Source: Cyanidioschyzon merolae (taxonomy: Eukaryota). Taken from it: DNA of 64,000 nt. Made by a program: the position numbers and the translations under genes. The notes beneath the pieces were generated by a model. That model was not told where the DNA came from. It did not search any database and saw only the letters and a program-made list of their open reading frames with translations. The stretch lies in NCBI GenBank assembly GCA_000091205.1, contig AP006487.2. The stretch is one strand, 5' to 3'. How positions within the stretch are numbered: position 1 is the first letter of the stretch; each line of letters begins with the position of its first letter. Positions 1 to 58,663 of the stretch are shown here, piece after piece.

Positions 1-1
1 G

Positions 2-298
2 CTGACGGAAGGGCGAATGGAAAGGAGAGCGAAAGTTCGAGGATTGCTTGCATCAGTAAGTACAACCAGTGATGGCAAGAAACGGATGGAGTTTGTGAAG
101 CGAGGTTTTAATGCCGCAATCAATCTACGGAGATGTGCGGTGCTAGAGAATAAACCTCCAGACTGGACAAGAAGGAACCTTGTTGGACAATCTCTCAAAG
201 GTGAACTATATGAGAGAAAGCTGGAAGCAGTAGTGGGTAGCCAGTCCAAAAAGACGGGGGGGGGGCGTCTGCACGTCAGCTGGAGACGATTTGTCTAA
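2..298 (+). CDS. C-terminal fragment of a Fanzor/TnpB-like RuvC nuclease (copy 1). The frame is open to the window edge, so it is truncated at the 5' side by the window.
   Basis: Translation ...KKRMEFVKRGFNAAINLRRCAVL carries the RuvC-III signature (R/K-D/G-x-NAAxNI) typical of TnpB/Cas12/Fanzor. It is about 80% identical to the C-terminus of the copy at 56435-56713 (LTEEQMERRATVRGLLASVSSTSGGKKRMEIVNRDLNAAINIRRCAML). Confidence 0.5.
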   Translation: MTEGRMERRAKVRGLLASVSTTSDGKKRMEFVKRGFNAAINLRRCAVLENKPPDWTRRNLVGQSLKGELYERKLEAVVGSQSKKTGGGRLHVSWRRFV

Positions 299-360
299 GG
301 CGCGTTCGCCGCCATTGCTGCGTACTGCCGGCGTCGTTCGACTTCGAACGGCGTTCGTGA
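130..360 (+). ncRNA. Conserved 3' segment of the Fanzor-like element, a candidate omega-RNA scaffold / right end. It overlaps the ORF end and extends past the stop codon.
   Basis: A nucleotide-level conserved block (...ggcgtctgcacgtcagctggagacgatttgtctaagg...cgttcgacttcgaacggcgtt) is shared with 56285-56560 and 44320-44580 (reverse complement) and with 6180-6300. The amino-acid C-termini differ between copies while the nucleotides are kept. It contains hairpin-capable inverted repeats. Confidence 0.35.
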
Positions 361-435
361 CCGAAGCTCATCCGCGGATCCAGCTGCACGCCGCTGCTTC
401 ATTCAGGACGCGTTGTATAACAACGTCAGGGAACC

Positions 436-756
436 ATGACGAAAGGAACATCTTCCAAGGGTCGCCGTCACGGCAAATCACATACACTCTGTATCCGTTG
501 TGGACGACGATCGTACCATATCCAGAAAAGTACCTGTGCGAGCTGCGGGTACCCGTCGCCGCGAAAGCGGACTTACAACTGGAGTTTGAAGAGCAAGCGG
601 CGACGCACTACAGGAACTGGGCGCATGCGGTACTTGAAGACGGTTGCTAGACGGTTTCGAAACGGGTTCCGCGAAGAGAACACTCGTAAGGCGATAAAGA
701 GGACAGTGGCTGCCGCTCCCGCACAGGAGAGCGGCCAGGAAGCAGCGAGCTCTTGA
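436..756 (+). CDS. RPL37: 60S ribosomal protein eL37
   Basis: Full-length match to eukaryotic eL37: [52 protein letters not shown]. It has the C4 zinc ribbon and is a single exon. Confidence 0.9.
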
Positions 757-2035
757 TTCGGAGTAGACGCGGCGCTACCCGTGTAGCACCGTATGCAGCG
801 CAGCCTCTCGTCGGAGAGCAGCGATTGAGGTTGCTAATGGGGTCTTTATGTGGTGAATCGAACTGGTGTAAAACTTCTTCCGAGTGTCCCCTAGCGCTCA
901 TACCAACACCCATGGACGTTACGTCGCTCGTATCGCGTACGCGGTGCGCGCTTGTCGCAGCACGTATTGCCGTGGCCCTTTGCGGGTCCGTCGAGCAACT
1001 TTGTACCACAGCTGCATGGCTTGCGCTCTTGTTTATGAGCCTGGTACGACGCGAGCCGATACGTTCCAGTCCCGACTGGAGCGCATCGGGTACCCGTTCC
1101 CGCTTGGAAGCTTGGGCACCCATCGCACTGCGTCGGCAGCGTTCCTAAATCGCGCATATCACCAACGATGGCCCGACACGAAATGGTTTCCGCGCGTCGA
1201 TTCTCTTCCTTCTGTCCTGAATAGGCGGAGAACATCATGGCTTGTCCATGCCTACCGGTGCATGAGCACCCATCCAGGAGTCGGTCGTGAGCGTTCTCGA
1301 TCAGTGCTCTGGAGGCCGCCAAGTTCATTTGAGGAAGCCCGACTTGCATGCGATGCGGCATGCAGCGGCGGGAAATGGCCTGCCGCTTCACACTGGGCGT
1401 AAAGTTGGGAGCAGTTGGCGTTGCTGACTCGCCGTTGTCGTTGTCGATGGCGAGTCGTGTACTTCGCTCGTGCTGAACTCGATGCAAAAATTGCTCGCTC
1501 GCATAGAAAACATGATATTCGAATCATGCGCATATGACGGACGGCGAATACGCGCTACAGCACATGGGCAAAGCTAGTCCACGCTGCGACTCGTATTCTT
1601 CCATCAAGCCCGAGGTTTCCCGATGGATAGGCCGAAGGTTTTCGCAGGTTTGCGATCAGCGCTAGCGCGGGCGCTGGGCATTCATTCGTGCTCCTGGCTT
1701 GTGCTTCGTCATCGAACTTGAGCTACTCCGCACCGCAATCATTCCCGGAAACGGCACTGGTTACTCTTCAACTGGCATGCATTTCGGTATTTCGCGGCAT
1801 CGACGACGGCGTACACTCCTGATGCACCACAGCGTAGAACTCTTGCTCCCGGGAGATGCCACTATTATCTTGCTTGCTGAACGTGTAAGCAGTTACGAAA
1901 CTAGGGCGCGCTGCTCCTCCATGCAAGTCGACAAATATCGTGTTCTGGAATCTGCTCTGATACATCCGTTCTACATCATAAATGAACGTATCATCTATGC
2001 TGGCGTCGTAGCTCGTTGTCCAGTACTGCGCGGCG

Positions 2036-3337
2036 ATGGTATTGCGGGTATCGTCCCGAGCGCGTCAGGCAGCGCTGCTGGTCCGCATCGACAAGGGCAT
2101 TGTAACCGGGACTCGCTTTGCGAGCTGGGGCGCTTTACACCAGGACTTGTTTGCTGGGTGGAAGGGCATGGAGTGGCCTGTCCGTTTTCATCGACTGCCT
2201 GGCGCTTTGCGGTTGACGGATACCGTTCTTCAGTTCCTGCCTCTGGATCGCGATGCAACCGTTCGCATCATACCGCTGAGTCGGGTGAAGCAGGTTCTGG
2301 TATCGGCCCCGGGAAGCCGCGTACACCTTCTAAAACTACAACTGGAGGATGCAACCTCCGCAGTTTTCGAGTTTGGCGGGGACCAGCGGTCCCGTGACCA
2401 GGCACGTGAGGCGATCGCTCGTGGGCTTCGGCGTCGTGGGGAGGTGGTGGCGGCGGCGGCGGCTGCAAGGCCCGTGGACGACCACGATCCGCTCTATCGG
2501 GAGCTGGTCGAGTCCGGTCTTGTTCCTGAGGATGTTTATCGCCTGTATGCGCCGTATCGGGAGGCAGCAAGCTGGCAGGCGAGGCTTTTCCAGGGTGGCA
2601 CGCTTGTTGAGGCACCCGCGCAACGTGCCGGTCTACCGTCGGCACTCTTATCGGAACTTCGACCCGCCGAGGAGAGCGGGCGCCGTGTCAAGTATCGCTT
2701 TGATCCGGCAACTATTCATCAGATCTTTGTAGAGGAACCTGCGGTTCAGCGCGCCTACGAGGATACAGTGGCTCGTGGCGTCCTTGATGAGAAAAGCTTC
2801 TGGAAAAAGTATGTTGAAATGCGGACGGCGTTGTCGGCATCTGCAAATGGAGTCAGGCCCAGTGATGCCCACGCTGCCGCACGTGCCTTTTTTGCCAAAT
2901 ACGAACAGCATACTCGAGATCATTCAAGCCGGAGCGATCATGAGAACGAGGCTGCGGGAGCTTCGCAGAGCGCGCTCCCTCTCGACGTGGACCTTCGCCG
3001 CAACGAATACGCCTCGCAGGAGCATCGTGAGGAGCACCTCGCTGATGCCCTCGAGCTCCTCCATCGTTTCAACCGTCATGGTCAACTGGTAATGGATGCG
3101 AGCCACTTTCGACCGGAAGAGCAGGAGTGGTTGAAACGTTCTTCCCTGATTCTCGAAGAGCTGGTGGAATCGCCTGCCTCCGATTCCAGCGATGACAACG
3201 TTGAGCTCGACGGCCGCGCCTGCGACGCAACAGTGCTCGCCGCTGGCCTGCTTCCCGCTCCATTTCAAATAGAGCGGGTCGCTGGTGAAGCCTATCGTGC
3301 AGCACTTTGTGCGCTCTCCGATGCAAATCTGTGCTAG
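2036..3337 (+). CDS. TFIIH subunit p62/Tfb1-like protein (PH-like N-terminus plus BSD-type motifs). The start codon is uncertain.
   Basis: A 433-aa ORF with an N-terminal PH-like segment, then LYRELVESGLVPEDVYRLY and VLDEKSFWKKYVEM (BSD-domain FW..Y pattern), and an acidic C-terminal region. Family assignment is by eye only. Confidence 0.45.
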   Translation: MVLRVSSRARQAALLVRIDKGIVTGTRFASWGALHQDLFAGWKGMEWPVRFHRLPGALRLTDTVLQFLPLDRDATVRIIPLSRVKQVLVSAPGSRVHLLKLQLEDATSAVFEFGGDQRSRDQAREAIARGLRRRGEVVAAAAAARPVDDHDPLYRELVESGLVPEDVYRLYAPYREAASWQARLFQGGTLVEAPAQRAGLPSALLSELRPAEESGRRVKYRFDPATIHQIFVEEPAVQRAYEDTVARGVLDEKSFWKKYVEMRTALSASANGVRPSDAHAAARAFFAKYEQHTRDHSSRSDHENEAAGASQSALPLDVDLRRNEYASQEHREEHLADALELLHRFNRHGQLVMDASHFRPEEQEWLKRSSLILEELVESPASDSSDDNVELDGRACDATVLAAGLLPAPFQIERVAGEAYRAALCALSDANLC

Positions 3338-4434
3338 GGTTCCTGCTGCAGCACACAATATGCACAGCGCGAGGATCCATGCCCCCGCAGATGCCACTGT
3401 ATGTTACCTGTTGGCAGACAGGGCACATACAAGAGGCAGGGCGCCTTGGTATCCCGCGAACACGCAACAGCCTGTGCGGATGCGAGACGGACTGTTGCAC
3501 TATTGGCCAGTATCCGAATCGAATGGAGCGTGCATCACCCGTGACCAGCTCGAGCTGTGCTATTTTTTCAGCGACTGACCTGTAATCGCGAACGCCCATG
3601 CATAGCCAGGACGGCGTCGATCCGTTCCCTGGTTTCAATAGCACAGGCGATGTCGAGAACGGCGCAAATAGGCTTGCGTTCACATCATGAAACCTCGATG
3701 ACAGCTCATGAGGGTCATCGCACAGTCGCGAAAAGGCATATTGTCCAAGGCGCGTGTCGACATCGACCGGAACCCGTCGGCCTGGTGAACGCACCATGGC
3801 GTGCCGTCTTCAGGCATAACCTCTCCGCGATGCGCGTTCGCGTTCGAGCGTGATCAAAAAGCTGTACCTTGTTTTGCCGAAGACTGCAAGCACCCAATTT
3901 AGGGATGACGTAAACGCCCCTGTACGTTACGGTGTGCCTGGTTCCCGAGTCGCGCTCGTTCGAACCGACAAGTCGCCTACCCGCGAAGAAACCAAGCACT
4001 GGAGGCGTTTTTCAACAAGCTACTGCTTCGGGTCCAACGGGATGCGCTTTTCGCCGTCGCTGCGCCTTAGCAGTGCCTCCTGCTGATCCTGAAGCCCGGT
4101 TACGCGTGATCGCAGGAACGAGAGAGAGTCATCCCTGGAAAACACATTATCAAAGCGATTTGCGCGCCACTTCACTGGTCCCGAATCACACGGGTAAGCA
4201 TCTTGTCCAGGAGGGGAATCGTCCGTCCATTCGTACACGGCGCGTCCATGTTCCCGGGAATCCGTATGCATCTTAAATGCCGCTTTCGACGCCGACACCC
4301 TGTTGCCCCAGTGAACAAGGAGGTGTCCCTCTGCTCGACAAATTGCCTTGCGAGGCGGAACGCAGGTGTGCGTGGATCGCTGCGAGCTTCCGGTACGCTG
4401 TCGATTGCCAGCGGTACGCCCGCACTCGGGTTCC

Positions 4435-5607: not shown

Positions 5608-5622
5608 CGCAACCGTTGCAAG

Positions 5623-5668
5623 ACGAACGAACGAACGAACGAACGAACGAACGAACGAACGAACGAAC
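5623..5668. repeat. (GAAC)n microsatellite, about 11 units
   Basis: Direct reading shows acgaacgaacgaac... repeated. Confidence 0.95.
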
Positions 5669-5899: not shown

Positions 5900-6380
5900 A
5901 GATATAGGTATGGAGATTGAAGTCGAGGATCCTGGATTGCCTCTGTCCACGGGTGTCGGAAAAGAACGGGAATTTTCTCATCTTTTCGACGATCGAGCGA
6001 AGAAGACCAAGAAGAGGGGAGATGGACCACAAAAATGTGTTTGCCCGACGGGGCGATGACGAGAATCTAATCGCACAGAGGGCACGAGTTCTGGCAATCC
6101 CTGCATTGATGCGTTGCACCAGATGAACTGCATAGAACGGCTCGTGAACGGAGACTTCGACGTCACAAGCAATATCAGGAGATGTGCGGTGCTGAAAACG
6201 AGACTCGCGGAGCTGACGCGAACTAAATTCGAGTGGCAGCCTCTAATACCCCCAGTGTGCCTGGATAAAAACCGCAACCGATGGCAGTCGGCGGATAGAA
6301 AAAGACTGGGCGGTGTCTGCGCGTGGGCAGCTATATGTACTCTCGATGGTGGTAAAACATTGCACGTTTTATAAATCATA
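5900..6380 (+). mobile_element. Degenerate Fanzor-derived remnant (copy 5) retaining part of the RuvC-III region and the conserved 3' segment.
   Basis: ORF 6114-6374 encodes ...DVTSNIRRCAVL (compare NAAINLRRCAVL). The nucleotides atcaggagatgtgcggtgct ... aaaaagactgggcggtgtctgcgcgtgggcagct align to copy 1 at 120-300 with internal deletions. Confidence 0.4.
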
Positions 6381-11934: not shown

Positions 11935-11999
11935 AGCGCCAATTCAACGCAAACAATTTCCGTTGTATACGATCATCTTCGGATTTTGGTTGAATTCGT

Positions 12000-16064: not shown

Positions 16065-19000
16065 ATCGTTCTCAGTTTTCCGCTGTTCTCGTATCCACTC
16101 GAACGTGCCTGTGTACGACGCCGCGTGCACAACGCAAAGATTGTATACGCACGCTGCGTGCATGCTGAGTCATCGACGCTCAGCGCGCGCACGCCTGTCA
16201 CGTCGAGCAGCGCGGCGGCGGCGAACACCAGGGCCACGTGGCCGCATGTCTAGGCGAGATGAGGGACGGAGTCGGGGCCGAGGGTTCCTGTGACACGGAC
16301 ACGTCACAGGGGGATGCGTCACGGCATGGACAGCACCCGACCCGAGATGTTGAGATACCTGATCGGGAGCGCGCGTCGACGTGCCCGCTCGAGCTGCATC
16401 GTTCCCGAACAGCATGCTCGTGATTGCCTACATGAATAGGCAGTGCCGCTGCTGACGTAAAACTGGGCGTTGAGGTCGCCTGCGTCAGGGCGCGCCAGTC
16501 GGTGAGTCAGTCAGTGCGGCGACGACGCTGGCGCTGAGGTCAGCGAGTCGTGCTTTATGGGGATATGGTTAGCGAGGGCCCTTGTACTGCCTTTTTGCGC
16601 TGGACGTGTGCGTGGTGTTCGCTGGGGAAGTATTCCGAGTGCCAGCAGCTGCCGGACGGAGGTATTTGTACGGGTTCAGAAAGAATCTTGAATCTGTGCC
16701 AAGCACAAGTTGTGGGTGCGCGTTTACTGCCTGGGTCCGACGCTTCCTCGGTAGGGACGGTTTTGCTCGTGAGCGATCGGTAGCAGTCTGGAAGCCCGTG
16801 AACAGCAGATTCGCGGGAACGACTCCCACCGAGGATCGTTCGCGCTCCAGCGAATGGGGATTGTTAAGGAAATCGTTGCCTCTGGCGCCCGAATCATCGG
16901 CTTGTGGGCCGTTCTTTTTTGGTCCAGCGCCTGAATACCGCTGCCTCGCAGTGAAGCGTCACTGGTGTTCCCGTCCCGAGTCGCCACGAAGATATCGTTG
17001 TCGACATTGCGTGTCGCAGACGGCTTGAGCTAGACTCGTACCCGTATCCAATGTTGTACAAGGGAATGCAGCTAGCGCTCTTGCTTCTTTCCGCCAGATT
17101 TGGGATACTTGTATGCCGTGCTTGTCGCTGTTGTGCGGCGGACCGGCCCTCGCCTCATCGACTGCGAATTGCTCGGAAGCTTCCGTAGCCGACATGCGCT
17201 TTTGGCTAGCACCGCCGCACCTCCAAGCACATGTGTCTGTGCGACCTGGGGGATCCTGCAGAAAAAGCCGCGCAAGCGACAGACGCCACGGAGTCTCATG
17301 GCTCAACCCGTGTCTCCGTTGAAATCGAATATGCATGGGAGGCCCGGATGCACGACCAGTATTCGTGAGGAACGAGCGCGCAAGCGAACGTTTTTATGTT
17401 TTCAAATGCTTGCCGCCACCTGGTATAGACATGGCAGACTTTCCGTCGGCTGCTATCTACGGGCACGGGCTTAGCGCATCACACGGATGCAAGATGCATT
17501 GCTCGCGGCTTGTCCAACCGAGACAACGCTTGCGGTTTCCGTTGTACGTGACGTGTCTCTGAACGCTCCCTCCAGTAGTGATTGGTAAACGCTCGCGTCC
17601 TCCTAGCGCTTACGATACCGACCAGCACACACACCACACCAGGTTAAGGCGAGTTCATGGTTCGCGCATGCCGTCCGGGCGAGCGTGACCTCGTCCGTTT
17701 CATTCGTTCCCGCTGCGTTCCCAAACGAAAGCTGTATCCGCTCGCCGATGTACACGACAAATCCATGGATGCACATGGGACGACTCTGGTCGGAACCGCA
17801 AATCTCTCGCGATGGACGGCAACTTCGGCGACGCCTTTCCGCATCCCGCATGGTTCCATCAACGCCTTGAGAGCCAAGTCCCCGCGCTTTTCGCATTGTA
17901 TCGGGCACACAGTTACTCGCCCGCTAGATAACTGGTTTGTTTCATGGATGTTTCGACAATATCGAGAGCCAGTCCTTTTTGTATAGAACATGAATGAAGA
18001 ACTCGAGACCGATGAGTGAGAAAATCCCGATCCAGGCACCACGCTTCAGCACATCGATCGTTTCTGGAGTGTACGATGCCGATGAGCCACTCGCGTCACG
18101 AGAGCTCGAGCCCTCAGCGCTCGTTCCAGCTCGCCGGAAGAGCAAGTTTTTCAGGAACGTCGACGCGGAGCGATCGCTCTCGGCGTTACGCTGCTCTGCG
18201 GTACTGCGTCGTATGTCGCCGTCTGGTGGTGCAACGAACGGCAGTGGCGTCCCTAGTCCGGGGCGGACGTTTTGAGTGAGACGGCGCCCTGCCGCGCGAT
18301 TGCTGCCACGCTTTCCACCGCCACCGCCACCTTTTCGGGCGTAAACGTTCCAGCCGTGGGCGCTGGCAGGTGCCGTCTCGCCGACAGCGCCTGTGTGTCG
18401 AGTGCGGACGTACCGGTGCCGGTCGAGCACGCCCTGCCCAATGAACAAGGTCCTCTTGTTTTCTGAATGCATTACACTCCAAAACTGCACCGCAGGTCCC
18501 GTTCTTGCGGTTAAACTTCACGAACACGGCTCGCACAGCACCACGTCAGTTGCGACTCGTCTGGTACGCAACGTTGAAGCGCCAATAGCGTCGCCCACGA
18601 GACACACAGGCTTGTTTGCGCGTGTCTCTGATTGCACCAAACTCGCTTTGCAACGCTCTCCCAAGCTAGGGCACCCCAAAAAGAACCTTTGTCGCAGCAC
18701 AAACAACCCGGTGCACACCAATCATTGACCTCAAGCGGCCAGTGCGCAGCCGACTCTCGACCGGCCCCGTCTCAAGCAAAGTCCTGAACAATACCCGTAT
18801 GTTTTTGATGCGCAATGGATCGCGTGCCAATCCGCTAGCATTGACCAAAAGACCAGATTCCACGTTGAAAGAACGATGCCGCTCGCCGACGCCCTCTGTA
18901 GTGCGGCAAACCGGGTCTGTCTCCATACCGCATTCGCACCAGCGTCATGGGCGCTATCGCGGACGATCAGGGCAGGCACTCGGCGCACGATAGAACCTAC

Positions 19001-21463: not shown

Positions 21464-24400
21464 GCGAAGACCGGATACGCCTCGCGCGTGATGCCCACTG
21501 CAATGAACGCTGGAAAATCTGTACCTGGACGATGTTTTTGTTTTTCTTCGTTTGTCTCGCAGATGTTCCATAACACGAGGTTTGTATCCTATCGATTGGT
21601 GAAAGGTGGCGGTAATTCGCTATCTCATAACTTGTTGCTTGCGAAGAACGGCCTCAATTGAACAAGTCCATTGTTCTACAATCAGCAGGAGGACACCTTG
21701 CTCTGCTCCGAGTGCGTGTCCTGGGCATTGTCGTGCACCCAAAACAGAGCTTGTCGAACGCTATCTCCACAACCGCCTGTTCGTCCATGCTCTCCTCTCT
21801 AAGCGTGTTCCAGGGAACACGAAGAACACAACCCACAGGAGATGAGTTCTCTGCTCCACTAGAGAGAACGGCGATGCAGAGACACGAATGAACGAAGAAG
21901 AAAGCGCGCTTGTACGCTGGACAAGTCGTGCACTGAACAACGCATGACCGAATTCGCAGTGAATCGTGGATACGTATAACAGGGGGCACGGGTGCATTCG
22001 TTTCACTCGAGGGCAGGTGATTCGGGAGAAATCATAGTACTACGTATGGGTACGCTTTTGATACCCGTATACCGTAATTCGTAAAGAGTTGACAATGGAG
22101 AATGGCGACAACAACAGCCGCCCGAGCTACGATGCTGTCGTGCGGTCGCAAGTACATCGCTGAGCGAACAGGAGCGTCCATTTGCTCATCGTTCGTCGAA
22201 TCACGCCTTGTGGCATCTGCTTCTCGCATGCTTCTGAACCGCGCCTAGACAACGTCGGTTTCTATCATTCAAAAGCGGCGAAAGCGTAAGCGATGAATCT
22301 TGGTATTGGGTTGCGCTTCGGGTTCGTCTGTTCTCCCAGGTTCGATTGACTCGAGGGCGTCCTCTCTCGAATCAAACGCCAAATTTACGCTGACAGATCA
22401 GGTGACGAGATGCTCGCTTCTGTAATCCACACGTTCTTCGACACATCGTTTTCGATATGTACCAGTCCGGATCTGCTGTGTTGACTCTCTGCTTGTGCGA
22501 TACCGGGAGCGACAAGGTATGCTTCTGCCTGGGGGTTTTCTCGCATCGGGGAAAGTGACGAAAAACTGTTTGAGAATTCGTCGATACATACTTAAAGCAT
22601 GCGGTTCGCGCTATCCCCGTCTACCCAGTGTAAATACAAGTGTGTGCACGTCTGTGGATCTCGGAGAAACAAACGAATGTGGCGTACCATCACCACATCC
22701 AAGCCGCACAGCCAAACAGCGGAGAACAAGACGGAACTGCACGGCAATGAAGAGCAAGATGCTCCCGACGGGCGGACGTGTAGGGCCAGGAGCGAAAGAG
22801 GCATCTGGAGCGGACACATCTCTCTGAAACCGTTGCCAAGGCCTCCATCCTTGAGCAAATCGACAAGCCGAGTCTTGCGTAAAGTGAGATGCTGGATACC
22901 AATGGGGATCGCTTGGTTTCCTACACGAGGACGGCTCGCCGCTTTCCCCTCGCGCTGACACACCTCGTGAAGCATCTCTTCACACAAGTGCCGAACGCTA
23001 TGCCACCAGCTGTCCACGTTTCTTCGGTACTCTTTCGATGAAATCATCGTCCGACAACAAGGGTCATGTCCGGGATAGACGGCACAGTGCTGTCTGATTG
23101 TAGGATCAGGGATTTGCACATCCGCTTCTCAGCGTACTTTGGCGTGTCGCCGCTACCCGTCGGCGATCGGAGCAACTACAGCGTATATCGAAAAAGCATC
23201 AAAAAACGTCGAAAACCAATACCCTAGACGGGTCAATGTCGAGCGCTTCCTGAATCGTCCTCTGGAGGTCTAGTATCCGAACTTCCTTGGCCGGCAAAAG
23301 CGCGGATTTATAGAAGGGATGCATCGCTTTCGAGTGCCGATCAACGTCCAGATGACTCTCGCGGACAACTTATGGCAGGAGTCCACGGGATTGCGTTGAA
23401 ATCGCCACCGGTTACATCCGTACGCAGCCCAGAATCGTGCATGAGCCAACTCGCTCAAAGCGAAGGAAAAAGGTAAATCAATCGAACGTCGTGCGATTTC
23501 CTGGTAACCGCTGGCGGTGACCCCGCTGGTTCATGCAAACGCTGCACACCTGCTCCTTTGAGTGAAGCGTACACGCGATGCAGAAATTGATTCTATACGA
23601 TTTCCGTTGATGCGTTCAGGATGCTATTGTCGCATCACGAGCACGGGTGTATGCTGAAACGTGAAGAGAAGAAGAGCGCGAAACGAATCCCTATCCACTA
23701 GATGCTGGGCGTGAAGCTGACCGCCGACCTTCAGATGACGAGTATATCAAAAGTCAGATGCTCGTCATGGTGTGCTGCTACCAGCAACCACGCACTCGCA
23801 AGCACTCTCTGCACAGAGACCTGAGAACGTCTCGATGCACATTCGGAAATGTCTTGTGCTGCCTAATCCGCCATCGGCCTCGTGTCGGGGCGAACGTTCA
23901 CGGGCATCGGTCAGGACTCGGTATGCGCATTGCGTTGAAACACGGACTACTTACGATGAAAAAATCAGTGGTCAATGGAGCATAACTGGATGCTCGCTTG
24001 GAGCCACGCATTGATGCGGTACCGTTCAGCAATCCAGTGTGCCTCGAGCACCGTATCCATGCACGTCGAACGACCTTTCCGGACGAGCGTTGAACGATGA
24101 TACCAGTTCATTCTTCGATATCGCTGGATTCCTGACTCCAAGACCTTAACTGGAAATCGGGTGCTTCGTGTCGTCGACCAAGGGATCGGCTCGTTAGCCA
24201 TTTCGCCTTGGCGCTCCCGGCACGCTTCAGCGAGTCCAGAGACGGGGCAACGCGAACCGGATGTCTCGCAGAGTAGCTGCGATTATTGGCGCGTCCCATT
24301 TCAAGTGCATGATGCTCCAACTTTCATAATACGCTGTGACGGACACATCGATGCAGCCGATTACCAACGGATTCGTAGACCTGTTGATGACGATTTTGAT

Positions 24401-33576: not shown

Positions 33577-36501
33577 TTGGGCATGAAGGCCTGCAGATCT
33601 CGAGGCGGTCGCTGGTGCGGTAGCACTGCGAACCAGTGCTGCAGGGTGGAACGCTTCGCGCGCCCCGGCGTGCGACGCTAACGGTAGCGCAGAGGCGCTG
33701 CTCAGGCGGCGCTGTGCGACTGTGTAAGTGTGCGCTTGCTATCTATAAATCTATATCTATATCTATATGGGAACGCAAAGATGCAGTCAGTGGAACCCAA
33801 AATTGTCCCATAACCATTTAAAATAACTGAATATCCACGTGCAGATATCTCCTGGCCTTTCCCGACCGGCGCCCTGCTGTCGGCTTTAGTTCCTCCTTGT
33901 GTATCTCGACCCTGAGAGGCTATTCCATAAAGTTCGATCGTGTCAGCTCCGTGGGTCCCGTCTTCTGCACTACGAATCTTCAACTATTACTTGCGGCATT
34001 GAAGTCGGGGTTTACGAACTCCATACGTGTCTTGCCATTGGTTGTGCACATGAATGCGACGAGTCCTCGAACTCGTGCCTTGTGTGCAATTTGGGGCTCT
34101 GTCAGATCGTCCAGCTTTCCTACCTCCGAAGCGCTCCGCAGCTTTTCCTGCGTCTCGACACTCTCAAGTATGATCCCTAGTACATCCCTTAATATTCCGA
34201 AATGAACTCACTTCTCTACGTCCCTAGGTGAGGACCTTACTGGATGTGTAGGACTCGCGGAGGAAAGACGACATGTGCCTCTGTGTGTCATCATGCTGAA
34301 ATCTGCAGTGATTCACCCAGTGGAGCGATGATTACTTTTCACGATAGAAAACACTCCCTCAATTGGGTTGAACTGTGGAGCGTACATAGGAATGAAAAGC
34401 AGTACCAACTCAATAGAATCGACAAAAGCTCGAACGCAAAAAGAATGGTTAAACACTAACTTGTCCAGTTGAAGGACGTTGCCAGACGTCGGGGGAAGAA
34501 TAAAGCCCCATCAACTGAAAAACAAACCGACATCCCTGTGTTTCATATCCACTGTGACTTTTCAGGAACAATATAGTTGAAATTTCGGTGCAAGATGGCC
34601 GATGAATGACCTCGCCATGTTTTTTTATTCAACTGTACCTCTGTGTTTTCAGGGCAATACGAACAAGAAGTTGAGAAACGGAGACGCTCGTGGTGGCTAG
34701 TATCGTCGCTTTTGGTTTCCGCTGGGTGTTCAACGGTTCGTTTTCTATCATTGGCTGCTAGCAGTCTATGACAATACAGGATTTTGGCGCAGAGCGCATC
34801 TACTTGTTTCTTTCAGTGTTCCTGAAACATCCGAGTACGGTGGTATGACGAATATGAAGGAGGAATACAATCCTCCTTCTACTATTCAGTAAAGAATTTG
34901 AATCTTTCAGGCAACTCTTTGACGATCTATAAGGTATACTACATCGTGATTTCGAACTCCTGTCCTACACCGCAGCTGTGATGGTACAGCATTGAGTTGA
35001 AATACTAGAAAAAGGAGCTGATTCGCCAACACCGGCATACACACTGCAGGTCATGAATATTCATACCCTTACCCAGGGCAGCCTTGGGATATTTTCCATG
35101 CAGTGGCTTCGGTTTTCTCTTTATTATATTCGGCATTAAACACGCCGGTCTCTTCCCTGTCTCTACCTCAGATGACACAAGTCGAGGGATGCTGGCGGCA
35201 GCGTTCGCGTCCCGATTTCGCTACTTTCTGCTGCTATCGACCCATTTGATGCACGGGCAGAAGTTGCAATTCATGCATCGATTGCAATGCTCGTCTTCTT
35301 ATTGTACTGCGTCGGGGCTCCCTCCGCATCGACGACTGTATACAGTTGCCAGGTGTTCCCATATGCCCGCCTCATCTTCTCCAAAATCCGCTTTATGGCT
35401 CAAGAAGGCTGGCCTCATCGCTCAGTGCATGCTGTTGCTAGGCGCAGAAGACTCACCTCGATGTACTCCCCCGTATACACGTTCGGCAGCATACCATATA
35501 AATATGGGCTTCTTCTAGAAGATCCCCTCGGCGAGTACGTCGCCCGCTGCACATGCAAGCACCTCGTGCCGCTTTCGATAAAACAGATGTGTTAGGCGAT
35601 TTTGCCTACGATGGCACAAGTACCCGACGAGAAAATCCAGACTGGAGAACAAGCCCAGAATTTTCGATCCATCTACGTACCAGTCACGCAAAGCGATGAC
35701 ATGCACTCCACCGGAAGTGATTCCTAGCGTGTCTGAAGTCTGAGACCCGCCCCCTTTCCACATACCAACAGAAGAGAGCGGAGGCGCTGGAAGCGTATCA
35801 CACGAGCGGGATCATGCTGCCGTCCAATGCCGTTTTATCTGCAGCCACAAAGAGATGGAGTTTGTCTTTCGACCGGAATCGATTCGTAGACGAGCGCTGT
35901 GCAGTGTACGTTCACCATGAGCCTTGTAAATATGTCGTCGAGTGACGGCTTCGAGTCTTCGTTCTTCTTCAATCCAGCGGCGCGAATCGCTGCGCCAATG
36001 CGTTTCTTTGAAATGGGAAAATCGAAAACTTGAACAATGCATGATACGAGCCTGCTACGCATAAGGAATGAGGCACCACATCCGAAAACGTTCGGAAAAT
36101 ACATCTCAAGGCGGGAACACATCAAGCAGCGCAGAGTTCCTGTTTCATCCGTCACGGAGTTTCGACACACTGCGCTGTCATGGGTGCGCACCGGCCGCTG
36201 TTATTCCAAAATGCACACAGGCGTTCCGAGCCGCAGCGCCGGCCCTGAGCCCTTTTGAAAGCTTGACAAGCGACCAGCGCTTCTGCACCTCGGGGAAACA
36301 GAAGCGCGGAACCTGGTACCGTGCGCGTCGGTGGACGCAGCGCGTCCACAAGAGCCTGGTGGACGGCGGCGTTTCGTCGAGTTTGCAGGACGGGAAGCTC
36401 CTGGGTCCTGCCTATGGGAGCCAGGCACCTGACCTGTGCTACTAGCTCGGTACGTGTGTTGTTCAGGTTTCCTGTAGCGGCGAATCGCGTACCTGCTGGC
36501 C

Positions 36502-44331: not shown

Positions 44332-44900
44332 CCAGGCCTTCAACGCCGTTCTAAGTCGAAGGACGGCAGTGTACAGTAGTGGCGAGAGGCCCGCCCTAGA
44401 CAAGAAGTTTCCAATTGATGTGCAGACGCCTCCCAGTTTTCCTCGACCGCCCACCCATTACTGCTTCCAACTTTTTCTCATACAGTTCGACATAAAGAGG
44501 TTGTCCAATAAAATTTCATCTTGTCCACTCTGGAGGTTTCGTCTCCAGCACCGAACATTTCCTGAGACTGATTTTTTTCCATTGCCAAAACGTTTACTCA
44601 GGCCAGCGTTCTCCGATTATGCGCATTTTTCTTTTCCTACTTTTTTTGTTTTATTTTTTCAGTGCGCGGTGAAGTATCCGTCAACCCCCTACCTCCATGT
44701 TACATTACCCATACTTCATCTCGGATATTCTGGTCGTTTCGTACGTCCTATTGTGTGTGCCTAGTGCCTGCCGAAAGCGACCGCAATGGCGCGTATAGCA
44801 CCGGTGCGGTCGCTGCACGGAGACAGAACGGCGTTGCCGTACCACAAAGGGTGTCGACTTGAGGCGTGGTATCGATGGTGTCCCTGTTGTCTCGTCTTTT
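44320..44900 (-). mobile_element. Degenerate short Fanzor-derived element (copy 3) retaining the conserved 3' segment and a decayed C-terminal coding remnant.
   Basis: 44369-44580 aligns with 56343-56540 (agtagtggcgaga..cccgccctagac...gtgcagacgcctccca...catcttgtccactctggaggt). 44330-44370 aligns (reverse complement) with copy 1 at 300-350 (actgccgtccttcgacttagaacggcgtt). Confidence 0.45.
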
Positions 44901-50173: not shown

Positions 50174-51802
50174 CTATTTCGATCTGGTATCACGTCCGGC
50201 CTTGAGCAATTCATCGACGAGCAGAAGTTGTGTGGTGATTGTCGAGGCCAAACTAAGCGCGTGCCGTTTCGGCCGGCAGCAATCAACGATGCCGCGTCCG
50301 AGCGGCTCTACCAGTTCACCAGAGTGCGCATCCAGACCCACCGTTCGCCCGGCTTCGTGGGCCTCGATCATCTGCAGGACGGTTTCCTGTGCGTCTAGGC
50401 CGGAATTCTCGGCGAGCGTCTTTGGAATCACCAAAAGCGCATCGGCAAAGGTCTGGACACCGAGGCGTGCTCGACCCTGGACAGTTTTGCTGTACGCTTG
50501 GAGGTGCTGATACGCTGCACACTCGAACGCCCCACCTCCGGGTACGACATAGGCGTCATCCAGGAAATGCCGGGCAGTATGAAGGCCGTCCCGCACGGCA
50601 TCCTTCAGTTGTTGCAGCGTTTGCTTGTCGGAGCCCCGCAGCACGAGCGTGCAGCTGCGCGCTGTCGGGGGCGCCTCCACGAAGGTATATTTGTCCTCTC
50701 CATGGGTTTCTTCAAAGACTCGTACCGCTTTTCCCAGCACCGATGGATTGAGGTCATCCAGGGAATTCACAGCCGTACCGCCACACGCAAGAACGAGGCG
50801 TTCCATGTTGCGGCGCTTTGCCCGCCGCAGCGCCATGATTCCTTCGCGTGCTAGCATCTCCAGTGCATCCGGCGAGATGCCCTTTTGATTGACGATCAGG
50901 AATCCCGCTTTCGTGCCTACCTCATCACAGACTTGGCGCTTCAGACGCAAAATTTTTTCAACTTGATGAGCAACAGCCTCGCGCTCGGCCTGTGCGAGTC
51001 GCTCTCTCTGCCCTGCACTAGAGTAGAAGAACCCGCCACCTAGCTCGGGTTTCTCGTACTCGAGCGAGACATTGCAGGTGAGCACGTACGCGTTCTCCAG
51101 ATCCTTTGGCATATCCGGGTGCCGCGTGCCATGATCTAGAACCAGACCTCGCACCAAGCTCGAGTGCATCGCTGTGCGCGACTCTATTGTCATTATTTCC
51201 ACCATGAAGAGATCGATAGGTTCGTTATCGTGATGCACGATCAGCGCTGCATCGGCAACGAGGTCAGAAATATGCGCTACCAAAGCGTCATCTGAGAGCT
51301 TCGTCGCGAGCGCACAGCGAACGGCCCGTCCGAGCTGTTCGCGGTCGTTGCGATCAACGGCGATCTGTACACTGGGAATAAAGCTTCGGAGCAGCTCGGT
51401 CCGGGCCAACTCAATCCCGTCCACGAGGTGCCGCGGGTGAATACCGTCCACGAGCGGTCGTTCCGCCTGGCGTAGGATCTCACCAACCAGCAGCACGACA
51501 CTAGTGGTACCATCACCGCACTCGTCGTCCTGCGCAGTCGCGGCCCTTGCGATGATCTTGGCTGTAGGATGAATGATCTCCATGTTATGAAGCAGCACCG
51601 CGCCGTCCTTGGTAAGTTTGAGCTCCCCGCTACCGCTCACGAGCAGCTTCAGGGTGCCACGCGGCCCCAGGTTCGATCGCAGGATATCCTCGAGCCCGCC
51701 CGCCGCAGTGATGCTTGCGTGCAACGCCAAGCCACGACGGGAGACCTCAGCGTGGGGATTCAAAAACTTGACAGCTGGGGCAGCGCTCATTGCAGGCAAC
51801 AC
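50174..51802 (-). CDS. CCT6: T-complex protein 1 (CCT/TRiC) subunit zeta
   Basis: LNPHAEV....AL..NI.AA.GL.D.LR.NLGPRGT.K.LVSG.G..KLTKDG.VLL..M.I.HPTA..IA.AA.AQDD..GDGTTS.VLL.GE.L is collinear with CCT-zeta. Full-length group II chaperonin. Confidence 0.9.
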   Translation of the reverse strand: MLPAMSAAPAVKFLNPHAEVSRRGLALHASITAAGGLEDILRSNLGPRGTLKLLVSGSGELKLTKDGAVLLHNMEIIHPTAKIIARAATAQDDECGDGTTSVVLLVGEILRQAERPLVDGIHPRHLVDGIELARTELLRSFIPSVQIAVDRNDREQLGRAVRCALATKLSDDALVAHISDLVADAALIVHHDNEPIDLFMVEIMTIESRTAMHSSLVRGLVLDHGTRHPDMPKDLENAYVLTCNVSLEYEKPELGGGFFYSSAGQRERLAQAEREAVAHQVEKILRLKRQVCDEVGTKAGFLIVNQKGISPDALEMLAREGIMALRRAKRRNMERLVLACGGTAVNSLDDLNPSVLGKAVRVFEETHGEDKYTFVEAPPTARSCTLVLRGSDKQTLQQLKDAVRDGLHTARHFLDDAYVVPGGGAFECAAYQHLQAYSKTVQGRARLGVQTFADALLVIPKTLAENSGLDAQETVLQMIEAHEAGRTVGLDAHSGELVEPLGRGIVDCCRPKRHALSLASTITTQLLLVDELLKAGRDTRSK

Positions 51803-53531: not shown

Positions 53532-55591
53532 TGCCGATCGGTGTCCGCGAGGTTACGGACATGTGAGGTGCTTGAAACCTGAGGAGCTGTCGGAGGTTGT
53601 TTGTGTCAGAGCCTGACCTGCTCTCACTCTCTGTGCCCTAGCAGTGTTGAAGGAATGTTGTCGCACTTGCAAAGCAGCGCATGCTCGGGAGCAGGCTCGA
53701 GACCCTGGTGTATAACGATGGAATGCAGGGGCTCGGCGTTCCAGCAGTAGTTTGACGCAGCTCCAGACGCAGAAGGGTTATCCTTGTATTGTGTACGATC
53801 TGAACATCTGCAGTGGCACGCTCCGCGAGGTCCGTTGCAGAACTAGTCTCAATTTATGCTATTGAATAGCGTACGCGGACACGAAAGGATGTCTGGACCG
53901 TCATAGACGAGCAGCAACTCGCTGCTGGTGCAGTGCGGCCATGCTCTGATGGACGACTTGTGTTCGCCCTCGTGATCGACCGATCGATCGATGGATACTT
54001 GGCGTGCCCGTGGATGTATATCCGTAAAAGCCGTGCTCTAAGCGGCGTTCGCACAATAGAAAATGGGAATCCATAGGAACCGGCCGCACAAGTCGTGCGG
54101 AAGATGATGCGTTGGGAGCCATAGCGCTACACGCTTCTAGTCTATGGAAAAGCATGTCATGCAGTTCTGTAATCTGCTGCGCAATGTATCCGCATCAGTT
54201 GGGTTCTCTTAAGATCCTAAGTGTATGACGTTCCTCGTGTATGCGATACTTGGATGCGAGCATGATAGCAAACTCCAGGCTGGAGCTTGATGGATGAAAT
54301 GCGTATCCTGCGGCCCTCGGAGTTGTGCCTTTTGGATCGCGACATGTCCAGAGACGCGCACTTGCCATGTCACCTTGTTGCTCGTTTGACTGAGATGATA
54401 AGCAGCCGCTAGACTGCGACGCGAATCCGCATCATTGCAACGCCTTACAGGGGCGCGACAGCATCCCCGCTACGCAAAACTGTATCATGGTTGATGTCAG
54501 GCTATCTCAGGATGTGGCTCTCTGTACTTGGTATCCGACTCGACGCTAGAGTCGTGCTATGCAGCGGATCGCCTGAGGCCACAGGAGTACCGATTTGTCT
54601 GGTTACGAGGTAGGTAAACTGTCTGGCTTTCCGTGATAGAGGTATAAGGTCATTGGATAATGTGGATAAGCTGTGACATTTTGCGGTACCGTGCGAACAC
54701 TTTTGTTCAAGATTCTATGAAATCCTTGTCAAAGCTGCAGCTCGTCGTCGTGCTGCTTACTATGCTCATCGGTTGTCAAATCGCAGGTAGTTAGCAATGT
54801 GCTTCCAATGCACTTGTTTCTGGGCAGCTATTGGAATCATCAATGCGAGGCTATTCCTAACCAAAAAAGGAGGCAATGGCACACGTTTTGACGCAGTTCG
54901 AGTCAGCACATGGGAATCCTCGCTGGCGTCTCGGAAGCGCATGATTGGTTGAAAGAATGTATCGAGCGGTCCGCACGGATGAAGTAAGCGCCAGCTTTTC
55001 TCGCATAGAGAGCGGCTCTTACAAATTAGAGCCATTTTGAAACAAATTTGAATTGCTGTGTGCTCATGAAACTCTGACAAACGTACGAAATAAGATTTCA
55101 GAAGACCTAGCACCAGCTCCAGAACTGTACATTACAGTTCTCCACTCCAAAGCGCTCGCACCCAGGTATTCGCGCTCACTCGAGGCCTGCCAAAGCGCCA
55201 ACCGGGAACCTGGGCAAATCCCGGACAGCGCCTAGCTGCTGCCATGAACATTGCCCAACGTCACTCTACAGGCCGAAGCGATCGTGCCCTTGACTTTCAT
55301 AGATATCGAATTCATAATGACTGCAGCTGAAGCGCGCGTCGGGTACGAGAGCTTTTATGCAGTCTCGCCCGGACGCCGCACCGTACGACATACACCCGCG
55401 ACGCGATGTATGCCTCCATTCCCACCATTACAGGCTCTATTGCGTACACGCTCTTGCATCCCTTCACCGCTGCTGGCAAAGATGTGGTACACAATTGGAT
55501 AGCGCATCTTTCGTGGAAGCGCATCCGCAACTGCGGAAACGGTGCTGCCACATCGGTCGTTATGCGAGCCTACGCAATGAACCTAGTATAA

Positions 55592-56050
55592 TCATTCGTT
55601 GCTCGTGGCCAGCAGCAGGGTGTACATACGCGCCATCGACCAGAAGCCTCGTTTATCACCACAGCGCAGCAGGTTCCCAGCGTCGCAGTTCAGTGGAGAC
55701 GACGGCTCCGGCTCTGAGAGGAGCAGTTGAATCGCCCTCAGACACGACGCAAGGCTCCAGGCTGGCGACCACGCCGACTGCAGAATGTCAAGGCAAACTT
55801 CGCCGGTGCGGAAGTTGATGTTTGGGTGAAAAATTGGAGTCAGAAAGCGCACTGTCGGTGGCACGAGCGGGTACGCAGCCGGTAGTGTCAGCGCGACGCG
55901 AAAACAGCCTCCCTCGTAAGGTGTAGCGGCGGGTCCGCGCAGGTAGCCTTGCAGCCGGAGTGGGTTGCCTTCCTCGGGCTCCAGGCAGAAGTTTGTCGGG
56001 TCTTCGCGGAGCTCTCTAAGCTCTGTGAGCAGACGTTTCTGCAGAAGCAT
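55592..56050 (-). CDS. Ubiquitin-conjugating enzyme E2
   Basis: UBC fold with the active-site motif FHPNIN..TGEVCLDIL and a downstream W/P; 152 aa. Confidence 0.85.
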   Translation of the reverse strand: MLLQKRLLTELRELREDPTNFCLEPEEGNPLRLQGYLRGPAATPYEGGCFRVALTLPAAYPLVPPTVRFLTPIFHPNINFRTGEVCLDILQSAWSPAWSLASCLRAIQLLLSEPEPSSPLNCDAGNLLRCGDKRGFWSMARMYTLLLATSNE

Positions 56051-56284
56051 GGTGCAGTCCTAGGGTTCGCGTTGGGGTACGAAAAGCTGCAAGCGAGCAC
56101 TGCCTGGAGGTAGCGCGAACGCTAGAGTGACTCTCACCAGCGAACACACCTAGAGCGAAGGATGCAAGTATGCTTAGTGGCACCGAGTGCGCGGATAGTG
56201 ACGAAAACAAGTACAGCGCCTCAAGAGCGATACAGAGTGCACAGAACTGCGCCTTTAGCGAGTAGGATCTATGGAGGGCTTTGG

Positions 56285-56560
56285 TATTTCGGATGACGGC
56301 AGCGACAACAAACGCCTTTCCAGAAAAAAAACGCGCCCGCGAGTGGGGCAAAGTAGTGGCGAGAAACCCGCCCTAGACGAAACGTCTACAGCTGAGGTGC
56401 AGACGCCTCCCAACCGTTTTGGACCGGCCAACTACTACAGCTTGCAATTCTTTCTCATATAGGAACACTTTGAAAGGTTGTCCCACAAAATACCATCTTG
56501 TCCACTCTGGAGGTCTCCCTCCAGCATCGCACACCGTCTGATGTTGATGGCGGCGTTCAA
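56285..56560 (-). ncRNA. Conserved 3' segment of the Fanzor-like element (copy 2), a candidate omega-RNA scaffold; about 150 nt of it lie beyond the stop codon.
   Basis: Same conserved block as copies 1, 3 and 5. Read on the minus strand, ...ggcgtctgcacctcagctgtagacgtttcgtctaggg... contains the hairpin tagacg-ttt-cgtcta. Confidence 0.35.
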
Positions 56561-58663
56561 GTCTCGGTTCACAATCTCCATACGTTTCTTGCCGCCGCTA
56601 GTAGAACTGACCGATGCAAGCAATCCTCGAACTGTCGCCCTCCTTTCCATTTGCTCCTCCGTCAGCGGTCCGTACTTTTGTATATCCTCGGGGCTCCTCT
56701 GGCACTTTTCCATCTCGACTCTCTGAAGTGTACACCCTAGCTCATGGTGTGTTTACGATGTTCGGAACTCATCTACGGGTATCGTGACGAAACGCCTTGC
56801 GCACTCTTTGTATGTTCTTGTCGTTGGAGCTGGCGTAATCCCTTTTTGGGTCTTCCAGCGTCCTGCTCCGGATGCTAGTACAAGCCTCTGACTTTCATCC
56901 TCCTTCAAAGCGCTCAACTGACTGAAAAAGATGGCAAATGCCCGCGGTTTCCCACAGTATAGATTCATTCGCAGACGAGCCCACCGAGGCTTTGTATACG
57001 CTTCTCACAGCGCATCCCAGTCGGCAACACGAACTAGCATGAATTCCCGAAACGCTTAAAAGCCGGCTCCTCGGCTCGTCACCTCGCTCAAAGCTTCTAG
57101 GCGATCCTTCATTTCTGCAGTCCATGTCTTGATTTCCTTCCTTGCATTCATGATTGCCGATCCTCGAGAGTACCCCGCTCTAGACACTCAACAGACGCGT
57201 ATCTTTCTGACATAAGTTGCGGTCAGTACCATCTTCCGCACGCTTGGGTACTGCGTCGGTAACGATATATGTGTTTCCGGGGTCCGCGCCAACGACAAAG
57301 TCGTTCTCATGCACTTTCGGCGTCGAAGGATCCACCTCCTTCTCATCTTCTTGCATCATCGAGGACGGGACTGGACGCTATGGGTTGGACCACCGATCGT
57401 GTACACACATAGCCACTCCATCGGTTTCGATCATCCCAGTCAATGCCTTTCGTTTGTTAACTTTGAGACGTTTGAGATGGAAGACGTTCTTCCAGTACGT
57501 CTCCCGGTTTTGGCCAGTGAACTCTATCTTCCTTACATTGAACTCCGGACTGATCTCCTTCATGATGCCGTGAAGGATTCTGGAGTCGATAGTCACGAAA
57601 TGTGACTTGATATTGGACAATGGAACGACGGTGAAGCGCTTCCCCATTAGGACAGACTTCCGTCTCTCCCACTCTTCATTTGTCTCTTCACTCAGCTTCA
57701 TTTCTGCCTTGCGTTCGAGCTCTCGGTCCAGAAACACGAAATACCGCAGGATGAGGCGATAGTATCTTTCCTTATCGTTTTTCAACTCTGATATCTTTTC
57801 TGTTGGATTCGCCAGCCCCAGTACCGCACGATGCTCTTGTATAGCCGCGCGGATGACGGAATCCTCATCCGTGCTCCCATTTGACGCCTTCTTGTCGACG
57901 CATCCGATCTCATCTTTATGCTTACGATCCTTCGTGATGCCATTGATCATCGCCCCTTTTCCTTTGCGAGGGATGCCTGGGTAGAGTGCAAACACGGCGC
58001 GTTTCATGAACCGCTCGAGGTTCTCTTTCAAATGGTTCTTCAGGTTCGCAATGTACTTCATTGCCACGTACTTGTAGCTAGCCTGGTTACCCTTTTATCG
58101 ATTACCCTTTAAGCGGAATTCCGCGAAGTTTTCATGGAGAGCGTGGACTACCTCATTTTCCTTCCGCGCTTTCTCTGTACCAAGCTTCAGGTGACGAATA
58201 GAGGTCTAATCGAAGAACTCATCGGGAGGCTCGATTGTTTCCATGTGTGTCACGCCTCCGTACATCTCCTTCACCGGATTCATTTGTACTGACGACGCCT
58301 TTATCATACGCATGGTGTGCAACTCGACACGGTTTCTAATAGCGTTTCGCAATTTTCTCCGTAGGGATCCTTGATATGTTTAAGGAGGCAGGCTTTCACC
58401 ACCATATGGTCGTACAGTCGTCTTTCCTGCCGCCTCCGACTTGGGGCCGCTTTTTGCTTCATTTTCTCTTCCTTTTCTTCTGGACTCAGCACTTTTTGTT
58501 GTTCTTTCTGGCAGCCGGTGACCCTGGGCCTCCAGGATCGTCGACTTGCACTTGTACAACATTCCTTTTGATAGTTATTTTTTTGAAAAAGAATGCTCTC
58601 TAAACGCCCCTGATGCATACTGCAAAACAACACGTGAATGCACTTTCTTGAAGTTTTAAGCAC
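56435..58663 (-). pseudogene. Near-full-length Fanzor / TnpB-like RuvC nuclease gene (copy 2) interrupted by several in-frame stops and frameshifts. It is either a pseudogene or contains small unrecognised introns.
   Basis: Minus-strand translation gives a long N-terminal region (58663-57380); then Ruv[18 protein letters not shown] (about 57250-57300); then VTIPVDEFRTS, which matches the TnpB V-D-P-R-Y-T-S-Q zinc-finger lead (56753-56968); then RuvC-III RDLNAAINIRRC (56435-56713). The order and spacing are those of TnpB/Fanzor. Confidence 0.6.

Follow-up and report, generated by a model that had tools for sequence, protein, structure and literature searches.

The window analysed here, a 64-kb stretch (64,000 nucleotides) of contig AP006487.2 of the red alga Cyanidioschyzon merolae, with positions counted from its first letter, contains the decayed remains of six insertions of CMe-1A, a family of transposable elements that encodes a TnpB-like protein of the Fanzor1 class. 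The preferred reading, to which a probability of about 0.6 is given, is that the short tail which follows the true stop codon of the element is a candidate omega-RNA scaffold, and that this role does not belong to the conserved "core" proposed for it by an earlier reading made from the letters of the window alone (the sequence-only reading). All six copies are dead remnants, none of which can encode an intact protein. The element family and its Fanzor1 nature have been known since 2013, so that in kind nothing new is added here, and the mechanism considered is an ordinary one; the small new detail is a defined scaffold candidate for CMe-1A, which comprises two stems and ~65–70 nt, from the stop codon to ...GGCGTT. 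If the reading is true, this would be among the shortest Fanzor1 scaffolds, coming from an alga of hot acid springs, and might be of interest for compact or heat-tolerant genome editors.

Coding core and two-hairpin tail at the 3′ end

The most complete insertion, copy 2, is a near full-length Fanzor1 pseudogene at 56373–58663 on the minus strand, as read from translation and tblastn (~56300–59120 as a whole, i.e., a total span of ~2.8 kb). Six-frame translation and the frame changes in tblastn reveal seven in-frame stops and at least three frameshifts, and the RuvC D, E and D motifs remain readable as GADPG (57276–57290), VDEFRTS (56756–56776) and RDLNAAINIRRC (56531–56566), all on the minus strand. 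The sequence-only reading had placed these motifs correctly and the repeat family that it described is real, while VDEFRTS, taken there for the lead of a zinc finger, is actually the RuvC-II glutamate motif. The apparent open reading frame (ORF) of copy 2 ends early because of a 1-base deletion directly after RuvC-III. Copy 1 is a coding remnant cut by the window edge (2–298, plus strand; 2–363 with its tail), 79% identical in tblastn to residues 333–429 of the relative P0017; its ancestral frame is open up to the TAA at 296–298, and its RuvC-III aspartate is mutated (KRGFNAA). Copy 3 (44342–44863, minus strand) is an internally deleted derivative composed of a 5′ module termed M5 (44574–44863), the last ~58 codons (44399–44572) and the tail (44342–44398). 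The 3′ blocks of the three copies are ~77% identical (56357–56666 vs. 1–314 and 56352–56533 vs. 44375–44557). It had been argued that the stop codon shifts between copies while the nucleotides are kept, which would point to constraint on RNA or DNA; this is an artefact of frameshifts, for in the ancestral frame the stops of copies 1, 2 and 3 coincide in the alignment (TAA 296–298, TAG 56373–56375 and TAG 44396–44398, respectively).

The 39-nt pattern of the core, GGAGGCGTCTGCAC.TCAGCTG.AGACG.TT.GTCTAGG, matches at 261–299 (plus strand) and 56372–56410 (minus strand), with a chance expectation of 0. In the ancestral frame it reads G-R-R-L-H-x-S-W-R-R-F-V-stop, and of the four positions that vary in it, three fall at the third place of a codon. 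Close relatives whose C-terminus is undamaged finish with ...RRLHVSWRRFV-stop (GRRLHVSWRRFV; in a longer form GQPLKVELYEKKLEAVVGGRSKKTGRRLHVSWRRFV), and when copy 2 is set against them in the ancestral frame, its core corresponds to the last 12 residues GRRLHLSCRRFV (56376–56411, minus strand), followed directly by the TAG at 56373–56375. Measured over 66 copies, the first, second and third codon positions have nucleotide diversities of 0.155, 0.125 and 0.249, respectively; the third positions are about twice as variable as the other two, a clear coding signature. Within the last 50 codons, positions 1 and 2 are the least conserved of the whole ORF and position 3 stays at 0.22–0.27 (family mean 0.25), so that the absence of a third-position drop gives no sign of an extra nucleotide-level constraint at the end of the ORF. 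Judged from these comparisons, the core is ordinary coding sequence of a longer ORF that is seen in intact copies, a result that the sequence-only reading itself had named as one that would speak against it.

The idea that the block, extending across the end of the ORF and beyond it, is nevertheless an omega-RNA core kept by constraint on RNA instead of protein and folded through inverted repeats of its own, is very improbable. It draws on the conservation of the block in copies 1–3, on the short inverted repeats CGTCT/AGACG and AGAC/GTCT, which can pair in ~80% of copies, and on the known overlap between omega-RNA and ORF 3′ end in TnpB and in GtFz1. However, neither of the two candidate stems has more compensatory changes than expected: the counts equal those of shuffled controls, and the variation that exists breaks the pairs. 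RNAalifold predicted no pairs in the core. The 3′ block common to copies 1, 2 and 3 consists of the last ~60 codons, including the core, and of a non-coding tail; conservation beyond the stop codon, as had been claimed, is thus real for ~60–70 nt, and the remainder of the block is coding. The lesson is that frameshifted copies of a pseudogene can make coding sequence resemble a conserved non-coding block.

In an alignment of 74 distinct 3′ ends the conservation of the family continues for ~65–75 nt past the true stop and then collapses. When folded one by one, most of 57 distinct tails adopt the same two-hairpin plan. Hairpin 1 is GC-rich and begins at the stop codon itself (TAG-GGCGGG-loop-CTCGCC-a-CTA); a conserved linker (ACTACTGTACAC / CTGTACAC) leads to the terminal hairpin 2, which has 8–11 bp and ends in GGCGTT. 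The terminal hairpin exists in at least two sequence versions, TCGTTCGA-CTT-TCGAACGG and GCGTTTTTC-TTTT-GAAAGGCG, and a few copies carry a quite different yet perfect terminal stem, e.g., one of 15 bp in locus L030. A covariance model, R1, that was built from an unfitted MAFFT alignment of tails finds 91 tails in related loci and exactly three in the window (291–363, 44334–44403 and 56303–56380), so that three copies, and not four as had been supposed, possess an intact 3′ end. The candidate scaffold of copy 1 lies at 296–355 on the plus strand (73.9 bits, E 4e-21; RNAfold −28.4 kcal/mol, with an 11-bp terminal stem). That of copy 2 lies at 56311–56375 on the minus strand and runs from the stop codon through hairpin 1, the linker (ACTAC-TTTG..) and hairpin 2 to ...GGCGTT (62.1 bits, E 2e-17), and that of copy 3 at 44342–44398, also on the minus strand, scores 66.7 bits. 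Rfam gave no match anywhere in the window. One further R1 match, at 18254–18351 on the plus strand (10.5 bits, E 0.18), contains a 36-nt insertion in hairpin 1 and has no adjoining Fanzor remnant; it is probably due to chance.

Base pairing in the tails was scored against a structure that we defined from single-sequence folds. In the unfitted MAFFT alignment, 78.9% of the cells pair, vs. 36–62% when the partners are slid, and double changes are present in 11 of the 20 pairs, vs. 6.8 ± 1.4 in shuffles. In an alignment fitted to the model (63 distinct tails) double changes rise to 15 of 20 pairs vs. 8.6 ± 1.5, a value reached by none of 500 shuffles. G-U pairs are more frequent than any other type at several positions of the tail, and folding is better for the sense than for the antisense strand (−20.6 vs. 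−18.3 kcal/mol, p = 1.6e-4). Folding with compensatory changes, together with the bias to the sense strand, lends moderate support to an RNA scaffold, as far as alignments of copies can tell. The proposal of an omega-RNA was right as to the location at the 3′ end of the element and wrong in detail, the better candidate being the post-stop tail.

Protein class and identity with CMe-1A

The stitched translation of copy 2 matches 48 relatives (best E 9e-263), and profile searching adds more, including intact proteins of 600–700 residues; the intact family protein has ~700 residues, and the protein family as a whole counts 7,094 cluster representatives at E ≤ 1e-3. Sequence profiles respond weakly: scans of the copy 2 ORF pieces and of intact relatives against Pfam and NCBIfam gave no significant match, the nearest being NCBIfam guided_TnpB with E 0.016 and Pfam TNB with E 0.23 (the latter on P0001), and a profile search of the sequences in PDB gave no match. 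Relatives bear the precomputed Pfam label DUF8286, i.e., a domain of unknown function, and a distant member, P0064, carries a precomputed match to PF07282. Since profile searches were uninformative, family membership was taken from fold comparison. An AlphaFold (AF2) model was made of P0044, an intact relative that is ~40% identical to CMe-1A proteins, so that the fold evidence concerns this relative and not a copy from the window (41 sequences; predicted local distance difference test score (pLDDT) 86.8, predicted template modelling score (pTM) 0.84). In a Foldseek comparison of this model with PDB, the best seven matches were all Fanzor1 structures (PpFz, SpuFz and GtFz) with E 1e-14 to 1e-18 and template modelling (TM) scores of 0.53–0.71, and Cas12o and Cas12f were far weaker. 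The profile check that had been suggested for the Fanzor assignment thus gave weak matches, and the assignment itself is supported by the fold.

Three motifs are nearly invariant in the 41 relatives: GxDPG (D422), DEFRT[ST] (E593, followed by T/S-T/S) and NRDxNAA (R661-D662), with spacings of 174 and 64 residues. The published Fanzor1 signature is D-X(125,275)-[TS][TS]-X-X-[C4 zinc finger]-X(5,50)-RD (Bao and Jurka, 2013; PMC3627910). Its catalytic D, E and D are present in the family, and all three motifs can be read in copy 2. The C4 zinc ribbon between RuvC-II and RuvC-III is not conserved, since the consensus keeps a single Cys, in LLWC; the ribbon appears to be degenerate in the CMe-1A clade, and the fold match is unaffected. 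The modelled fold, bilobed as in TnpB and Cas12 and with the REC and RuvC insertions of Fanzor1, supports the view that the family encodes a TnpB-type RuvC endonuclease of the Fanzor1 class, for which RNA guidance may be inferred. A side observation on the protein is a tandem repeat of ~25 residues (roughly DNDxxVDxxKHEExKxAxPxxQxV) just N-terminal of RuvC-I, present in 1–4 copies across family members; it was noted in L004, L005, L008, L018, L085 and others, and its single-copy equivalent in the window lies at ~57290–57360 on the minus strand, upstream of GADPG.

The family lies in a transposable element and is multi-copy, with six remnants in the 64 kb and 343 related stretches in hot-spring metagenomes that hold Cyanidioschyzon-like contigs; identity between copies is 72–83%. 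The only Fanzor1 family listed for C. merolae, CMe-1A, was described with ~150 copies, each ~80% identical to a consensus of ~3 kb and some of them intact; it had no terminal inverted repeats (TIRs), its target site duplications (TSDs) were undetermined, it was left unclassified as a transposon, and its 5′ 635 bp were also found in a shorter repeat, TE-N2_CMe (Bao and Jurka, 2013, Mob DNA 4:12; PMC3627910). The family of the window shares with CMe-1A the organism, the protein class, the size of ~3 kb, many copies of ~80% identity, a separable 5′ module and the lack of clear TIRs and TSDs; no long TIR was found in the window family. On these grounds, i.e., organism, protein class, copy properties and architecture rather than alignment to the consensus, the window family is CMe-1A. 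A claim of novelty accordingly does not hold, the family having been published in 2013. That paper predates the discovery of omega-RNA, and describes neither the two-hairpin tail nor the 12-nt inverted repeat dealt with below (PMC3627910). Rhodophytes are among the reported hosts of Fanzors (Jiang et al.), and within the library searched no paper besides that of Bao and Jurka (2013) treats a Fanzor of Cyanidioschyzon, one more paper that contains both names being left unread. A search for Fanzors in red algae brought up only algal papers on unrelated subjects. As for copy density, six remnants per 64 kb may be compared with a genome-wide average of ~1 per 110 kb at ~150 copies.

Element ends, related systems and competing explanations

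The region upstream of the copy 2 gene (58664–59120, minus strand) consists of a module U5, which extends to 58826, and of module M5 at 58827–59120. Its part 58827–59116 is 84% identical to 44574–44863 of copy 3 and is contiguous with the element in loci L032 and L072. It follows from the match to the left module of copy 3 that the supposed copy 4 (58700–59110) is not a separate insertion but the upstream, left-end module of copy 2, and that copy 3 is internally deleted. At least three unrelated 5′ modules are found upstream of a common junction (..|ACGCATCGCGCTC) when L007, L008, L011, L013, L027, L039, L040 and L045 are compared with the window at 58826. Upstream of other copies (L005, L015, L023, L051, L063 and L069) the M5 module of copy 2 turns up again, in detached or inverted form. 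Copy 3 is enclosed, at 44341–44352 and 44825–44836, by an inverted repeat of 12 nt, CAACGCCGTTCT / AGAACGGCGTTG, which is perfect; the 3′ copy of this repeat, AGAACGGCGTTG, is the 3′ arm of the terminal hairpin, and the left copy is part of a small hairpin (ACGGC-AAC-GCCGT), ~25 nt inward from the boundary of conservation on the left. In copy 2, a motif GGCAACGCCGTTCC near 59087 (~59080–59095) is complementary to the arm of the 3′ terminal hairpin. The inverted-repeat partner occurs only with module M5. With unrelated 5′ modules, and with the partner confined to M5, neither the left end nor the TSD nor the target-adjacent motif (TAM) can be defined, which was already the situation in 2013. If the opposite strand is read, the geometry of the 12-nt repeat recalls the asymmetric terminal inverted repeats of Helitron2.

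RNA-guided cleavage by Fanzor1 was shown in 2023, and the best-known system for comparison is SpuFz1 of Spizellomyces punctatus, for which expression, binding and cleavage were demonstrated, the guide being read from the flank; its omega-RNA scaffold has 75 nt, and gene-less "ghost" loci of ~550 nt in S. punctatus keep the scaffold (Saito et al., 2023; PMC10432273). For Fanzor1 it was shown that TIR and TSD contribute to the scaffold's terminal stem, which takes the place of the TnpB pseudoknot (Yoon et al.). The P0044 model resembles SpuFz1 in overall fold (PDB 8GKH; TM 0.61/0.71, E 2e-16), the CMe-1A tail has the position, size and plan of the SpuFz1 scaffold, with a guide that would likewise be taken from the flank, and the layout of copy 3 resembles the ~550-nt gene-less derivatives. 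However, protein identity to SpuFz1 is only 12–15%, and SpuFz1 has 30-nt inverted repeats and a CATA TAM, neither of which can be defined for CMe-1A.

Closer relatives form a sister Fanzor1 clade (P0044 and P0049–P0052; loci L086–L091 and L093), with ~36–41% protein identity to CMe-1A and the same catalytic motifs; at least one of its samples is a brine metagenome and not a hot spring. A DDE_3 (Tc1/mariner-type) transposase lies immediately upstream of P0050, P0051 and P0052, and the elements that contain P0044, P0050 and P0052 measure 3.4–3.6 kb and have ~30-nt TIRs (TATACTCTG...GGAACACC / GGTGTTCC...GAGTATA). The 183-nt region from the stop codon to the right TIR (four distinct sequences) has a consensus fold of −31 kcal/mol with double changes in 17 of 44 pairs. 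Taking these alignments together, a structured non-coding region between stop and right end is a property of this Fanzor1 lineage. In contrast to the sister clade, which has its own DDE_3 transposase and TIRs, CMe-1A carries no gene for a transposase, and its tail is shorter by more than half.

TnpB proteins of IS200/IS605 and IS607 elements work with a guide RNA whose coding segment lies at the 3′ end of the element and continues into the flank. They share with CMe-1A a RuvC nuclease with D, E and D motifs, but their omega-RNA overlaps the ORF extensively and forms a pseudoknot, whereas in CMe-1A the part that overlaps the ORF shows no RNA-level constraint and a plain stem closes the candidate scaffold, as reported for Fanzor1. 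By analogy with SpuFz1, the tail would be transcribed in the sense direction to give an omega-RNA scaffold that consists of two stems plus a linker, in which the transposon end would form part of the terminal stem. Some 15 nt of flanking DNA read through past GGCGTT (in copy 2, below 56311) would then act as the guide, and the RNA would be bound by an intact Fanzor protein supplied in trans, which it would direct to cut the matching empty site. As no copy in the window retains an intact ORF and copy 1 has lost its RuvC-III aspartate, the system is inert within the window, and another part of the genome would have to supply the intact protein.

Several observations weigh against a scaffold role of the tail. 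No left end, TAM or TSD can be defined: the search for a common left end and TIRs among the copies failed, and no TSD was readable in four M5-bearing copies. The first ~11 nt past GGCGTT are A-poor and weakly conserved (T-G-T-T-G-T-N-G-G-N-G, 0.3–0.6 bits; 39 loci and 56295–56310 of the window) before the sequence becomes random, and for this reason neither the junction between scaffold and guide nor the true end of the element is pinned down; the weak conservation could stem from a preference for certain target sites or from a TSD that the scaffold has taken up, or it could mark where the element truly ends. RNAalifold recovers only three pairs from a wider 300-column 3′ alignment, which is why the hairpins were defined from single-sequence folds and then tested. 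Some divergent tails fold differently, hairpin 1 occurs in two registers, and its inner pairs include many cells that do not pair. One of the alignments had been fitted to the structure, and the copies are related by descent, so that shuffle controls overstate the significance. The last point, that related sequences can beat such controls without real structure, also favors a tail that is simply the 3′ untranslated region of the Fanzor mRNA or a signal for the end of its transcript, conserved by recent common descent and without any guide role. The tail diversity of ~0.21, slightly below that of third codon positions (0.25), and the modest folding z-scores against dinucleotide shuffles (mean −1.24; below −2 in only 13 of 56) agree with it as well. 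We regard this explanation as quite unlikely, for the slid-partner controls keep the relatedness and yet give less pairing (36–62% vs. 78–79%) and fewer double changes, divergent copies such as L030 retain a terminal hairpin of quite different sequence, the sister elements at ~40% protein identity keep covarying stems at the same position, and the layout matches an experimentally characterised omega-RNA.

Somewhat more weight, though still that of an unlikely alternative, is due to the possibility that the tail hairpins are DNA-level transposition signals for a transposase acting in trans, either hairpin ends of the Helitron2 type or single-strand ends like those of IS200/IS605. Hairpin 2 is placed at the very end of the family conservation, and its 3′ arm is matched perfectly over 12 nt by an inverted partner in copy 3's left module, with a similar motif in copy 2, L032 and L072; the left copy of the repeat being itself in a small hairpin, the M5-bearing copies have hairpins at both ends. 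Fanzor1 genes were reported inside Helitron2 elements with hairpins at both ends, and CMe-1A was left unclassified (PMC3627910). Nevertheless, most copies carry other 5′ modules without the inverted-repeat partner, and the many G-U pairs and the sense-strand preference agree better with RNA than with DNA in duplex or bottom-strand form. Close to CMe-1A copies no partner of the Rep/helicase or transposase kind was noticed, although no search aimed at RepHel was made. Moreover, the two functions are not exclusive, since the known Fanzor1 transposon end belongs to the RNA scaffold. A combined role is conceivable, if a long shot, in which the terminal hairpin would be the DNA recognition hairpin of an unclassified, possibly Helitron2-like transposon and at the same time the closing stem of a short (~65–70 nt) Fanzor1 scaffold, with gene-less copies acting as guide-only loci. 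If true, it would classify CMe-1A and provide a minimal Fanzor/omega-RNA pair that is naturally adapted to heat and acid.

Remaining remnants and gene content of the window

Protein and profile searches detected three Fanzor remnants besides copies 1–3. The earlier inventory was right as regards copies 1, 2, 3 and 5, wrong in counting copy 4 separately, and missed the two remnants at 22751–23794 and 33800–34180. The fifth copy is a degenerate C-terminal coding remnant at 6122–6334 on the plus strand (nhmmer E 7.9e-18, tblastn E 4e-7), in which R1, run with filters off, recognised no 3′ tail. Another degenerate C-terminal remnant, with ~47% amino acid identity, lies at 33800–34180 on the minus strand (tblastn E 2e-25, nhmmer E 4e-27). 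The remnant at 22751–23794 on the plus strand is very degenerate and internally deleted, with ~34% amino acid identity (tblastn to residues 45–179 and 542–654 of P0044, E 1e-7 to 6e-12).

The window has a G+C content of ~55% and carries ordinary eukaryotic genes, i.e., those for TCP-1, YchF, uridine kinase/UPRT, DHDPS and acyl-CoA synthetase. It is C. merolae nuclear DNA, because the TCP-1 zeta ORF at 50174–51802 on the minus strand proved in a homology search to be 100% identical over 538 amino acids to the protein of C. merolae 10D; exact-sequence look-ups of two proteins of the window had given no match. The closest related contigs stem from hot-spring metagenomes, and three of them are 95–98% identical to 56150–59400 of the window, flanks included; one of the data sets, Ga0078972, is from a Yellowstone hot spring. 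An ORF of 1085 residues at 59397–62654 on the plus strand encodes ~650 residues of Thr-Pro/Ala-Pro repeats followed by a C-terminal Hint module (PF01079, E 7e-37), and because of the repeat, long but spurious ORFs appear in other reading frames as well as on the opposite strand.

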